Shown here: one piece after another, positions 47,139-51,151 of the stretch
How positions within the stretch are numbered: the stretch's first letter is position 1
Layout of the letters: each line of letters opens with the position of its first letter
Position numbers and translations under genes: made by a program
DNA from: an uncultured Poribacteria bacterium
Lineage (GTDB): Bacteria; Poribacteria; WGA-4E; WGA-3G
Length of the DNA: 64,000 nt
Direction: 5' to 3'
NCBI GenBank assembly: GCA_951813565.1
Contig: OX638351.1
Location: forward strand, 2,912,001-2,976,000
Notes under the pieces: generated by a model
Databases searched by the model: none
The model's input: the letters and a program-made list of their open reading frames with translations, nothing else
What the model was told of the DNA's origin: nothing

Positions 47139-47909
47139 TATTTTAATAATATCACGTTGTGGACGCAGTATCAAGTGGAATTACATGGATTTCAGGGTTA
47201 TTTATACCATCTCTAAATTATAACTTCCCATTTACAAAAAACGCGTTTAATGTGAATGTCGGACGCACATTCACCAAGCGCAATTCATTGCGCCTCGGAC
47301 ATTCAACATAAGATAAGTTTCAAAATCTCATAGAATCTTCGTAATGGTATTTTATTTATTAGAATTGGTATTAGTTTTCGGGTTTTCTGCTATATTTTTT
47401 CACATTTCTATATAAACTAATACGTATGCAAAGTAGTAGGCACACTCCGTGGGTTTCCGTCCACCCAAAATGTAAAGCGGACGGAAACCCACGCCGCGTG
47501 CCTGCTACCTTTAAATCAACTTAAAGATTTTCGTGATAATGGAATGTTCTCTTTAGTCCCGTGAATCAACGCCAAATACGCCAAATGCCATACGCGCATT
47601 TGGCGTATTTGGCGTTTGGTATTTGTCGGGGCTTGATGTTTATAGTAACCAAGCAATTCAATCTCCTCGCGCCGTAGGTGCGATATGTTTATTCCGTTTT
47701 TGTTTACATATCGCATCTACGGCGCGAAAGAGACTTATCATACTTCTTTCTATAAACGAACTCATAGCGAGTACGAGCTATGAGTTCATTATTAACACGC
47801 ATCAACTGATAATTTTTAAAACTAAATAGCCCTACATGGATTCTATCCATTCAATTCTTTAGCAGTCCCATGATTTTTATGTCAATGTGGAAGGGTTTTG
47901 ATAAAAGAA

Positions 47910-47940
47910 CAGGCAGATACCCAAAACGGATATCTGCCTG
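47910..47940 (-). terminator. Intrinsic terminator
   Basis: Minus-strand CAGGCAGATATCCG-TTT-TGGGTATCTGCCTG followed by TTCTTTT. Confidence 0.75.
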
Positions 47941-47966
47941 TAAAATAGGTGATTGAAGATAGAAAC

Positions 47967-49226
47967 CTAATCAGAAGCCCAATGATAGTTATGTGTTCCC
48001 CAATCACTTGTGCAACTACCATTGCTGCAGCGCGTGAAAGAGACACCGCATCCAGGACGTCTACACGTAAATGTTGTCGTGTGATTGTGCGTAGCACCTG
48101 ATACACACGTCCAATAGGTATGCCCATAAGCACAGGTTTGCCTATGGTCTAACCTGTTACTTACTGTCTGCCCACACGCCGCACGCGCACAGATCGCACC
48201 GGGTGGCGGATCCGGTTCAGACGGAGGGGACGGTGCTGGCGTAGGTGTCGGTGTCGGTGTGTTGTAATCACTACCACTGCCACTACTATGCGTGGGGGAC
48301 GGGAAGTTATGGGAATGCGTGGACTCCTGACACAGATAATATCCCTGGCAATAAACAGTCCCGCCATCTTGTGTAATGCTTGCGGGGCAAGAAAGATATT
48401 CATGTGAAGACGCGTACATTCTCACGTTGCTTTTGCTATCCTCGTGGATGCCACACGCATGAACAGCAGCGTGCATATAATCAAGCGGACATATAGTTGT
48501 TTGACAACTATAGTATTCTCTGCCACACTTGGTTCTACGATTTACGCCGGTAAGCCACCGATCCTCTTCACAAATCACGCGATGATGGTATTTGTCAGGC
48601 AGCGCAACCTCACAGCTCTCATGTTCACATTCATACGACTTCGGATATTCCGGTTTCACCGTAAGTGTATGCGTTACGGTATCAGCAGTCTCGGTTGTAT
48701 GAAATGTTATACTGCCAGAACCAGAAAAACCTGTGCCTTGCACCTTTATGCCACCACCACCGGCAACTGCCATAATTTCTGCACTGCCTGTTAACGTATA
48801 AGTGCCCGGTTCTTCTGCATACTTAGAGTTTTTGGACTTCATCCCTGTTGTATCATTATCCCCAAAAATGAAACCGACACCTCTCATTTCAAATTCTTTT
48901 GGTAAGGTCATAGAAAAATTAGGGCCTGAGACGGAACCACTTGGCATGACTCCCACTGTGCCATACCCCCAAGTTTTTTGATACGCTGAAACTTTGGCCC
49001 AAATCTTTGCATCTTGATACCCGACACTCACGATACGCGGATTTGGCGTATCGGTATCTGTCCACTCAAATTTCTCTATGATCTCGGTATCAGATTTACC
49101 TTCAAAATCCCAAATACTGCCAAAAAACGTACCGGAACAATCTCTACCTATTGACTGTAAAGCTACCGTAACATGTAAAAATGTCATCATAAGGACGACT
49201 ATTAAAAGACTCACACGAAATTTCAT
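47967..49226 (-). CDS. Exported Cys/His-rich hypothetical protein
   Basis: AGGAG RBS before MKFRVSLL; signal peptide; Cys/His clusters separated by a PTPTPTPAPSPP linker. Confidence 0.8.
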   Translation of the reverse strand: MKFRVSLLIVVLMMTFLHVTVALQSIGRDCSGTFFGSIWDFEGKSDTEIIEKFEWTDTDTPNPRIVSVGYQDAKIWAKVSAYQKTWGYGTVGVMPSGSVSGPNFSMTLPKEFEMRGVGFIFGDNDTTGMKSKNSKYAEEPGTYTLTGSAEIMAVAGGGGIKVQGTGFSGSGSITFHTTETADTVTHTLTVKPEYPKSYECEHESCEVALPDKYHHRVICEEDRWLTGVNRRTKCGREYYSCQTTICPLDYMHAAVHACGIHEDSKSNVRMYASSHEYLSCPASITQDGGTVYCQGYYLCQESTHSHNFPSPTHSSGSGSDYNTPTPTPTPAPSPPSEPDPPPGAICARAACGQTVSNRLDHRQTCAYGHTYWTCVSGATHNHTTTFTCRRPGCGVSFTRCSNGSCTSDWGTHNYHWASD

Positions 49227-49230
49227 GTTT

Positions 49231-50073
49231 TTATCTCCTTTTTTCAACTTCGGATTCAAGTTCTTTAACAATTGATTCTACGAAAGGTTGCCATTCTGGA
49301 CGCGGACGTTTGGGGCGCTCCATAGATTTCAGCAACTCGTTTTCTTTTCTCGCTATTTCCTCCAACTCGACTCGCTTGGGCTCCCTATTCCATGATATGC
49401 TTGTCGTCACATAGGGGGTCGAACCAGACGCTTTGTATCTAAGTTTATTCAATAACTCACGTGCAAGGTCCTGAACCCCCGGTGCGTAGGTTGCCTTCGG
49501 AAGCGTCTCACCCGCCATCATCCGCTTGATCAGCGGTTGATCTAAATAAAGCAAACTGCCACCCACAATATGCCGTAATGCATGGTATCGGATCCATTCC
49601 GTTTCTGAGAGTTTTGTGTAATCTTGTCCAGGCGACTCTTCTGACCACCCAACTTTAAATCTGGGTTCATTATACTTATACAAACCAGCGACACTTCCAT
49701 CGGCATTATACCGATAGTTGTGGCCATCTGGTGGCGGATCAAGACCTTGCTCTTTCCAATACTTTTCCCATTCCGCTCTTTGAGCATCGGTCACTGGTGG
49801 CGATGGGGCATCAACAGCATGCGGTGCATCGTGCCATTCCCCGTTATGCCAGTGTCCCCCGCCTTCAAACGTTTTGCCGGGCGGTGGCTTGGTGAAATCA
49901 ATAGGCGTTTGTGCCACGACTTCTGGCTTATTCTTGTCTTCAAGCAGTTTTTCGTCTTGTGCAAGCTGTTCTTTGAACTGCTGCACTTCTGACCACTGGT
50001 AATAAATAAAACCACCAGCAGCAATCAATATAACAATGAGGGCTGCTATTCCCCAGTGAAGTTTGCGTTGCAT
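49231..50073 (-). CDS. Membrane-anchored hypothetical protein with GGHWHxxEWH motif
   Basis: N-terminal TM helix; KPPPGKTFEGGGHWHNGEWHDAPH; AGGAGG RBS. Confidence 0.8.
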   Translation of the reverse strand: MQRKLHWGIAALIVILIAAGGFIYYQWSEVQQFKEQLAQDEKLLEDKNKPEVVAQTPIDFTKPPPGKTFEGGGHWHNGEWHDAPHAVDAPSPPVTDAQRAEWEKYWKEQGLDPPPDGHNYRYNADGSVAGLYKYNEPRFKVGWSEESPGQDYTKLSETEWIRYHALRHIVGGSLLYLDQPLIKRMMAGETLPKATYAPGVQDLARELLNKLRYKASGSTPYVTTSISWNREPKRVELEEIARKENELLKSMERPKRPRPEWQPFVESIVKELESEVEKRR

Positions 50074-50331
50074 CTAACGGTCCTCCTGTCTAAGATTCTT
50101 GTTATCCCTGCTATTCGTTGTGTCCAGTGTGCAAGGCTGTCTCGGACTTGGACAGATCAAGCCCGGTTTCAGTACCTCTTTTCTCGACATACATTCGCGT
50201 TTGAATTGTTGTTCGCAAGCAGGCGTATCAATCTGCGTGGCATCTATTGTGCCAAACAGCAAGAAACCGCTTCCGATGATGAATGCGAAAGTAAGAATGG
50301 AGAGAAGAAGTACTTTGTAGTCTCGTCTCAT
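50074..50331 (-). CDS. Small membrane/exported protein (LLFGTI)
   Basis: GAGGAGG RBS; hydrophobic helix; four Cys; stop codon abuts the next ATG. Confidence 0.65.
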   Translation of the reverse strand: MRRDYKVLLLSILTFAFIIGSGFLLFGTIDATQIDTPACEQQFKRECMSRKEVLKPGLICPSPRQPCTLDTTNSRDNKNLRQEDR

Positions 50332-50446
50332 CTTGTGCCTCCTCATTATTTGAGTAGGTTAATTGTTTTGACAGACTACAGAAATGGCAGGTCTGAAATG
50401 AGAAAGTTTTGCTATCCCTGTAGAGGCCGCTGGTCTCTAAAGTGCA

Positions 50447-50475
50447 TTGACACTTCAGAAGGTCTATGCTAAAAT
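50447..50475 (+). promoter_or_regulatory. Sigma70 promoter of the candidate antisense RNA
   Basis: TTGACA-N17-TAAAAT with extended TG. Confidence 0.7.
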
Positions 50476-50481
50476 AGACAC

Positions 50482-50590
50482 CAGCGCTGTCAGATATTTC
50501 CTGGCAGTGCTTCGCATCGGCAGTGGTTTCAGCACTGTCGGTGCATCTAAAAAGCACCTCCGACGTAATCCACGCGAGGCGGATTTTTTT
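50482..50590 (+). ncRNA. Candidate structured antisense small RNA (~110 nt)
   Basis: Own promoter; hairpins AGCGCTGTCAG/CTGGCAGTGCT and GCATCGGCAGTG/CACTGTCGGTGC with G-U pairs favouring the + strand; AATCC..GGATT hairpin plus T7 at the end. Confidence 0.55.
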
Positions 50591-50604
50591 AACGTCTACG
50601 AGAT

Positions 50605-50633
50605 ATTATAAAACTTTTTGCATTTTTTGTCAA
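50605..50633 (-). promoter_or_regulatory. Consensus sigma70 promoter of the three-gene operon
   Basis: TTGACA-AAAAATGCAAAAAGTTT(17)-TATAAT on the minus strand. Confidence 0.75.
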
Positions 50634-51151
50634 CAACTTTTTTGAATTTTATCAAAAAATATAATTTACAGGACTTATAGTGAGCTTTGAAATTGTGGTA
50701 GGCGCGTTTTCTAAACCCGCCTCGGACATTGTTGGAGAGCTTGTAAGCCCGATAATTGTCTGAACCAGGATTACCAGATTTTCAGGATTGTTTGGTGTCC
50801 GAATATATTTTACCCAGATAATCGCTTCTGTTTATCTCAATCTTTTGTGTAATCTTGCTAATCGCATAATCCTGAAAATCCTGGTTCAGAGACAATACAG
50901 CGCGTTTACAAAACGCACCTACCAGTGGGTAAATGTCCAAAAACGCCAAATGCCTAAAAGCGCATTTGGCGTTGATTCACTGGTCGCGATCTTTCGACTA
51001 AAACAGGTAATAAATCGACAATTGAATGCCTCTGACATGGATCCCCAGATTCCTTGACATCGCAAAACATTTCGTGATATATTATTTATATAACGAACTG
51101 ACAGGAATTACGGTATCTGTTGAAAATGAATATAAAAGAGAGTCCAATTCT

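Follow-up and report, generated by a model that had tools for sequence, protein, structure and literature searches.

A 64,000-nt window of contig OX638351.1, from an uncultured Poribacteria bacterium, carries one copy of what is probably a portable, multi-copy regulatory cassette of a single Poribacteria family, made of a strong promoter, a structured ~270-nt leader and a counter-transcribed RNA, which together would act as a translational refolding switch. That the antisense/leader RNA pair is real appears very likely. Comparison of homologues establishes, at the level of predicted features, both promoters, the folds of the antisense RNA and of the mRNA leader, an alternative helix and the fast change of the loops; that the antisense RNA is transcribed and represses the leader is what we infer. 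Such a family-restricted pairing of a cis-antisense RNA with a leader is a mechanism of a known kind in a new setting. An earlier note on this DNA had proposed that an operon of exported proteins on the chromosome is controlled by an undescribed antisense switch, and this is supported by conserved promoters, covarying antisense hairpins and a switchable mRNA fold, whereas the multi-copy family, the variable loops and the unrelated cargo had been missed and a terminator and one pairing had been misassigned. The features referred to below are, in positions of the window:

50605..50633, minus strand: mRNA promoter TTGACA-17-TATAAT, predicted start ~50598
50562..50596, minus strand: mRNA 5' hairpin (the earlier note's 'terminator'), with T7 at 50584-50590 on the plus strand
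50514..50544, plus strand: antisense hairpin 2, 12 bp, with GGCAGTG and a variable 7-nt loop at 50526-50532
50483..50511, plus strand: antisense hairpin 1, 11 bp, with GGCAGTG and a variable 7-nt loop at 50494-50500
50487..50492, minus strand: segment Z, read UGACAG in the mRNA, partner of D' and part of the stretch that the antisense RNA covers
50447..50475, plus strand: antisense promoter TTGACA-17-TGnTAAAAT, predicted antisense RNA 5' end ~50481-50483
50429..50485, minus strand: helix A:B (50485-50474 with 50439-50429), enclosing the antisense promoter sequence
50415..50423, minus strand: segment C, partner of D in the three-way junction
50369..50384, minus strand: switch segment D/D', pairs upstream (Z, C) or downstream (F)
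50338..50358, minus strand: SD hairpin, CCUACUC with GAGGAGG
50316..50331, minus strand: segment F, the other partner of D, spanning the orf1 start codon and first five codons
50074..50331, minus strand: orf1, 85 aa, with four Cys and a signal-peptide-like N-terminus; the orf2 start abuts its stop
49231..50073, minus strand: orf2, 280 aa, N-terminal membrane anchor, His-rich linker and polymorphic C-terminal part
47967..49226, minus strand: orf3, ~419 aa, secreted, variable N-terminal domain and Cys/His-rich C-terminal repeats shared with the family
47903..47938, minus strand: intrinsic-terminator-like hairpin closing the operon; same motif downstream of 36/102 elements, within the DNA available
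47195..51045, no strand: approximate extent of the insertion (module and flanking repeats), between the tmk and recJ promoters

Seven close copies, each ahead of an orf1 and an orf2 homologue, were found in this genome by BLAST, and a covariance model built from 21 homologues found 12 copies. In 151 genomes drawn from the phylum the model gave 417 matches, the element being present in 83/99 genomes of family f1 and in 0/51 genomes of other families, with 1 to 17 matches per positive genome, counts which may be low because 22 candidates were scored per genome. An exact-pattern scan of species-representative genomes gave 100 stretches and, among the 80 listed, 74 bore the label Poribacteria and 6 'uncultured bacterium'. 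The statistics given here are from 102 elements of 38 genomes, chosen from the best matches and not at random, and they overstate independence because the sequences are related. To arrive at this set, the pattern gave 117 hits in 111 loci, with 6 loci giving none, an anchor filter removed 13 hits, which were mostly off-target and included at least one real divergent copy (L047), after which a further off-target hit was taken out together with L143, a copy that had not been parsed. Rfam, from which the RNA family is absent, returned nothing at the gathering threshold in the window; around the element it gave no more than sub-threshold noise. Judged by title or the opening of the abstract, none of the papers listed in a library with few subscription journals deals with a Poribacteria antisense element of this kind; supplements of large RNA-motif screens could include it.

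The two convergent promoters lie where they had been reported. Indeed, a scan of 5 kb gave only three sites scoring at least 11, two of which are the mRNA promoter (12/12) and the antisense promoter (11/12, TG extension present), both of the sigma-70 consensus type. The likely start of orf1 is ATG 50331 with the SD GAGGAGG at 50344-50338, and the leader is therefore ~267 nt long, close to the ~265 nt first claimed; ATG 50346 was rejected as a start, being absent from most homologues. Among the 102 elements, the best mRNA promoter site scores 11-12 of 12 in 52 and at least 9 in 101, with spacers that vary, and 11-12 of 12 is also reached in 25/40 held-out copies. The antisense -10 is TATAAT, TAAAAT, TATGAT or TACAAT in 98/102 elements, the anchor used to collect them having fixed its last two bases, and the TG extension is present in 96/102, with a -35 looser than the -10; in held-out copies TAnnnT was found in 42/42 and TG in 40/42. 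On both strands, boxes are conserved and spacers are variable. Conservation of promoter and hairpins upstream of homologues, on which the earlier note had staked its proposal, was observed. The mRNA promoter and 5' hairpin are tandemly duplicated upstream of the element in L014, L029 and L086-L088. An ATG or GTG stands at the foot of hairpin 2 in 95/102 mRNAs, behind GGAGG in subtype A, and could open an upstream ORF of 3 to 69 codons.

The 11- and 12-bp hairpins sharing GGCAGTG are present as described. On the plus strand, 50483-50590 folds at -45.7 kcal/mol (z -5.2, 0/200 shuffles as stable) compared with -35.8 kcal/mol (z -3.0) on the minus strand, and in 102/102 copies it is the plus strand that gives the more stable hairpins, by 12.1 kcal/mol on average. 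In an alignment of 21 sequences 95.4% of cells are paired and 7/23 pairs show two-sided changes, a covariation counted among related sequences and with most two-sided changes separating subtypes; this level was reached by 0/500 shuffles, and slid registers pair only 20-53%. Hairpin 1 has 92.1% of cells paired and 3 pairs with a two-sided change, and hairpin 2 has 98.4% and 4 pairs. Four subtypes of different sequence share the same antisense fold.

The 3' end of the antisense RNA is less well defined by the alignment than had been supposed, since the hairpin followed by T7 that had been taken as its terminator is present here and a conserved terminator role was not upheld. This third hairpin is weak in the present copy (-7 kcal/mol, z -0.26, no better than shuffles), and because the mRNA strand gives it the greater stability in 88/94 homologues and only 6/94 have a T6 run, it reads as mostly an mRNA 5' hairpin and was rejected as a conserved antisense terminator. 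No other conserved one was found, at least four T following hairpin 2 in only 18/102 elements. The antisense RNA is predicted as two stem-loops of at least 62 nt. Two sequencing runs, X1 and X8, from one sample and of guessed RNA nature, yielded single contigs of paralogous leaders (50412-50574 and 50420-50584), X8 also giving a short repeat piece; these carry no evidential weight, as strand and ends are unreadable from contigs and the region is multi-copy.

On the mRNA strand, three helices (Z:D', A:B and C:D) together form a three-way junction. In 50 aligned leaders Z:D' is paired in 247/250 cells with one two-sided change, and corresponds to the pairing of TGACAG with CTGTCA that had been suggested as part of an alternative fold. 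Helix A:B is paired in 578/599 cells and, with 68 G-U cells versus 4 C-A cells, is kept on the mRNA strand. C:D is paired in 295/297 cells in subtype A and in 111/112 in the 14 of 17 subtype-B rows that are in register. The other pairing suggested, of CTGAAA with TTTCAG, is attributed to chance and was rejected: among the seven close copies CTGAAA stands at that place in only two, one of which has a different loop 2, and the remaining five carry an insertion there. Repeat-derived insertions of ~35-95 nt were observed in the C:D loop of the G000 copies 4797900, 3488200, 3449400, 2484100 and 1775900, with the junction intact.

Segment D has a second partner downstream. D:F is paired in 346/360 cells (19 G-U) of 33 subtype-A rows; in subtype B, where F is different, 119/135 cells pair. 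The middle base of D is T with the A-type partner in 47 copies and A with the B-type partner in 21, a matched change which is probably a single evolutionary event. When growing transcripts of this copy were folded, the junction was seen at 236-270 nt and again at 300 nt, D:F at 285 nt and the 5' hairpin in every modelled transcript. The stretch covered by the antisense RNA was then blocked in silico in 54 copies, 27 others being left out without a promoter call and 21 without a D or F call. D:F rose by more than 0.2 in 19/54 copies and fell in 1, the loss of Z:D' being built into the model; in this copy it went from 0.00 to 0.66. The shift stayed below 0.2 in 34/54 copies and the modelled switch is not universal. 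The mean unpaired probability of the initiation region was unchanged on blocking (in subtype A, 0.36 before and 0.38 after). With transcripts that extend 20 nt beyond the start, opening the ribosome site became costlier by a mean of 1.9 kcal/mol over 43 copies, going up by more than 1 kcal/mol in 29/43 and down in 5, compared with +0.4 kcal/mol when hairpin 2 alone was blocked as a control. At 40 nt past the start the effect was nearly gone (mean 0.5 kcal/mol; 14 up, 10 down) and in this copy it was reversed (14.1 to 12.6). The proposed switch is thus structurally well founded, but its translational output has only moderate support.

The same RNA pair could instead act mainly on transcription, by antisense-induced attenuation at a Rho-dependent or unrecognised terminator or by collision from the convergent promoters, which we consider improbable. 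Subtype B keeps D:F with no conserved SD or start at F and, with the pattern used, the D motif was found in only 12/39 held-out copies, so that the output of subtype B must differ or be looser. Moreover, Rho is encoded in the genome, the sequence after F is pyrimidine-rich, and attenuation is what pT181 and pIP501 use (PMC5703833). However, the alignments show no U-tract after the D:F helix in either subtype, no terminator was flagged there in the 5-kb scan, the subtype-A helix covers exactly the start codon of an orf1 that is coupled to orf2, and collision alone would leave the conserved hairpins and the loop length unexplained. The translational refolding switch is thus the reading followed below.

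The loops of the antisense hairpins diverge far faster than silent sites. They are 6-7 nt long, loop 1 being 7 nt in 69/102, and 204/206 within-genome pairs differ in at least one loop, both loops being shared by only 2/206, among them the pair L147/L148 of this genome. In the seven close copies stems are identical, whereas identity is 0.63 and 0.41 for the two loops and 0.94 for the promoter spacer next to them. For 30 pairs with orf1 at least 90% identical, identity is 0.92 at four-fold sites, 0.73-0.76 in promoter spacers and 0.50-0.51 in the loops, near the ~0.45 of unrelated pairs. A fixed loop size with a free sequence is as predicted by loop-loop recognition of the RNA's own complement and, given the loop differences between copies, every set of genes is probably turned off by a switch of its own. 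We infer selection for loop orthogonality; hypermutation or recombination could be the cause of the fast loop change instead. In L075 and L110 combinations of loop 1 and loop 2 are swapped between neighbouring and orthologous copies, a sign of recombination. Kissing-loop antisense systems have a YUNR U-turn motif in the recognition loop; raw counts of this motif, taken without a null, are 32/102 and 47/102 in the antisense loops and 18/102 and 31/102 in the mRNA loops.

A fixed scaffold with two variable 7-nt segments, in modules lying at many unrelated sites, could also suggest a guide or trans-acting RNA with loops directed at some distant target, such as an insertion site, the cargo or foreign DNA. 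In bridge, seek and TIGR guide RNAs, variable segments match a target or donor and the gene of a cognate recombinase or nuclease lies alongside. Neither feature was found: in 98 loci the loop cores match the flanks within 1.4 kb no more than the loops of other copies do (largest excess ~2 sd in 32 comparisons), loops pair with each other no more than controls, paired loop matches have no shared spacing in this genome, and no integrase, recombinase or nuclease gene was seen to recur beside the element. We regard a guide function as very improbable, and loop-loop recognition within the antisense/leader pair as the better reading of the loops.

Among 48 homologues, orf1 varies from 11 to 110 aa. 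It encodes 70-110 aa with a signal-peptide-like N-terminus and a Cys motif in 34/48 copies and is replaced by an unrelated 11-37-aa peptide in 13/48; its homologues are named in their sources as Poribacteria hypothetical proteins and it has no Pfam family. The orf2 start lies within -11..+1 of the orf1 stop in 28/40 copies and, this spacing being held despite the varying length, orf1 is probably a coupling leader. Type I toxins are small, hydrophobic proteins of under ~60 aa. In a type I toxin-antitoxin family, as the earlier note had likened this locus to, orf1 would act as a membrane toxin countered by the antisense RNA as antitoxin, and adjacent cargo would be stabilised by the module. The hydrophobic helix at the start of orf1 fits this, as does the discrimination of paralogues through two variable regions known from Sib/ibs (PMC2943612). 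The conserved small hydrophobic toxin is nevertheless what fails here, with orf1 in two unrelated size classes which both keep the coupling to orf2, a subtype B that has no intact orf1 in the alignment and yet keeps the RNA, no Pfam toxin family for orf1, and no recognised toxin seen in the cargo. The analogy was dropped and we hold a toxin-antitoxin role to be quite unlikely; a coupling leader under antisense control accounts for orf1 better.

The cargo differs between subtypes. We scanned 110 proteins (subtype A, 61 of 118 candidates; subtype B, 49 of 66) and found no rep gene or Rep family. Subtype A heads a three-gene unit of a small secreted peptide, a membrane-anchored polymorphic protein and a secreted polymorphic Cys/His-rich protein, closed by a conserved terminator, and 57/61 of its scanned proteins have no Pfam family. 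Subtype B heads unrelated genes, with methylase, restriction, UvrD-nuclease or SNF2-PLD domains in 12/33 loci scanned and cadherin, LRR, WD40, cohesin or NPCBM domains in 10/33. No usable Atlas match was obtained for orf2 or for an orf3 paralogue. The AlphaFold model of the orf3 paralogue L146 (pLDDT 62.9, pTM 0.48, 22 sequences) consists of small Cys-rich domains and, at the N-terminus, a long helical hairpin that is hydrophobic in its middle; Foldseek found no match to it at E 0.001 or better, and a pore-forming or toxin role for orf3 is therefore unsupported. In L087/L103 and L124/L146, the C-terminal type of orf2 and the type of orf3 seem to travel between genomes as matched pairs, like cognate partners.

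The present module is an insertion. No element lies within 1.5 kb of recJ in 29/29 relatives, and 47190 joins 51047 directly in L163, with similar joints in L152, L155 and L157. The flanks at 50640-51045 and 47195-47900 are full of high-copy palindromic repeats as well as probable IS or MITE ends, the upstream one giving 242 BLAST pieces. An empty site and abundant flanking repeats are what a DNA-level hairpin site, attC-, REP- or MITE-like, would show if it marked or mobilised cassettes and its promoters were incidental. This is scarcely probable, as two promoters conserved box by box, strand-specific helices and start-codon coupling point to RNA, and inspection of the module ends by eye showed neither a terminal repeat in common nor a target duplication. 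The RNA reading is kept for what follows.

By analogy, the cassette would work most like RNAI of pSK41, with two-loop recognition as in MRB RNA I and discrimination of paralogues as in the Sib RNAs. RNAI of pSK41, from the staphylococcal RepA_N plasmids, is a ~80-nt two-stem-loop antisense RNA against the rep leader, ~100 nt upstream of the initiation region, and its binding is proposed to induce a stem hiding the ribosome site (PMC5703833). The cassette likewise combines a predicted two-stem-loop antisense RNA against a leader with a proposed start-occluding stem. Unlike pSK41, it is chromosomal with up to 17 matches per genome, it has unrelated cargo and no rep gene, its three-way junction is conserved and its leader ORF is coupled, and it has no plasmid sequence match. 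The comparison with pT181 RNAI and pIP501 RNAIII, made in the earlier note, holds for the antisense promoter, which by its sequence lies counter-transcribed inside the long leader of the controlled gene, and for the proposed course of events, in which binding removes an upstream partner and a downstream stem forms (PMC5703833). It does not extend to the induced stem, which has no U-tract terminator before the start codon and covers that codon instead, nor to Rep and Cop, which are absent, the flanks being chromosomal genes and not a replication initiator beside a plasmid origin.

MRB RNA I of Vibrionaceae plasmids is a ~68-nt two-stem-loop RNA with loop-dependent recognition, an incompatibility determinant found with unrelated cargo, and MRB RNA II serves replication and encodes no ORF (PMC3035462). 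The cassette resembles it in structure and variability, with two stem-loops, short variable loops that may give specificity, and unrelated cargo. The resemblance extends to ColE1 RNA I. Convergent promoters ~130 nt apart and a two-stem-loop RNA, with no rep and with unrelated cargo, are indeed reminiscent of MRB replicons (PMC3035462) and of a Rep-less, RNA-primed origin, ColE1- or MRB-like, of integrated mobile elements. The long transcript reads here as an mRNA leader, however, which continues through an SD into coupled ORFs as far as a conserved terminator. In addition, no match was found among 72,556 plasmids, a loose pattern gave at least 118 stretches in viral contigs of which 0 of the 80 checked matched the model, and in two DNA runs the module has the depth of its flanks, as a single copy, with no joint skipping the whole module listed. 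Such an origin has very little probability, and the leader of a chromosomal operon is the reading retained.

In Sib/ibs of E. coli, cis-encoded RNAs of chromosomal paralogues discriminate cognate targets via two variable recognition regions (PMC2943612). The cassettes are likewise paralogous units with two variable regions but, where Sib covers the toxin ORF and its initiation region directly, the RNA here sits 150-210 nt upstream of the start, action through refolding is proposed, and no small toxin is conserved. In R1 CopA/tap-repA and in hok/sok with mok, an antisense RNA controls a leader ORF, and translation of the real target is coupled to that ORF. The cassette too has a leader ORF coupled to the target gene, with no rep or Hok-family protein and with a long-range junction. 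Phage P1 C4 and P4 CI are short structured immunity-type RNAs with specificity in short segments, lying on the same strand as their target and pairing with separate complementary sites. The likeness to these that the earlier note had drawn fails, since the RNA here is counter-transcribed, its loops match no separate site, Rfam has no match, and the CTGAAA/TTTCAG pairing is not conserved.

The following mechanism can be proposed. The nascent leader would briefly show two loops complementary to the antisense loops. When no antisense RNA binds, Z:D' and C:D would form the three-way junction and leave the start region F out, orf1 would be translated, and its translation would carry into orf2 by coupling. 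When the antisense RNA binds, loop to loop, it would zip up and take Z, whereupon D would pair with F and enclose the SD hairpin and start codon, turning off orf1 and the coupled genes, possibly with Rho polarity. The loops may serve as locus barcodes, each antisense RNA controlling mainly its own locus despite near-identical stems, as do plasmid incompatibility loops. As to purpose, which is speculation, the likely one would be to control costly or polymorphic cargo independently and with fast relaxation, for instance through a burst when a new cell is entered or a release once transcription is shut down.

Leaders under antisense control whose specificity lies in loops have been described chiefly for plasmid origins, along with a small number of toxin loci. 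In this family the arrangement would be a general chromosomal control module placed before restriction-modification, helicase-nuclease, adhesin-like and polymorphic secreted-protein genes. The RNA family offers an approach, open to testing, to the control of defence and surface genes in Poribacteria and, with more than 400 natural loop variants on one scaffold, material for studies of RNA recognition specificity and for orthogonal switches. A wider reading, which we consider rather doubtful, is that of plasmid-style incompatibility on the chromosome, with hundreds of orthogonal antisense switches barcoding gene cassettes. If so, an incoming cassette with new loops (e.g. a methylase or a surface protein) would be expressed at once, one whose loops match a resident copy would be silenced in trans, and selection would drive loops apart; being unstable, the RNA could also free defence cargo once the host ceases to transcribe. 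It would amount to an RNA-based layer of self/non-self recognition and allele counting over the defence and secreted-protein loci of a sponge symbiont.

The upstream neighbours of the copies are many different chromosomal genes, and four module copies lie within ~75 kb (G012:C100) and within ~55 kb (G053:C15) on single contigs. At G000:C1:205300-217700 (seven units) and 3723500-3726400 (two), there are tandem arrays in which a membrane-anchored gene resembling orf2 is followed by a secreted gene that differs every time and by the same terminator, each unit with its own conserved promoter and a short leader giving no antisense-model match; this looks like a polymorphic cassette array related to the subtype-A modules. 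Five divergent copies of two further subtypes (G000:C1:1985455, 4563058, 1679635, 4864334 and 4866945) stand ahead of secreted proteins and, in most cases, PD40-like beta-propeller genes come next. Finally, an orf3 variant at L097:727-2682 (minus strand), with no Pfam match, carries a His/Asp motif reminiscent of a zinc peptidase.
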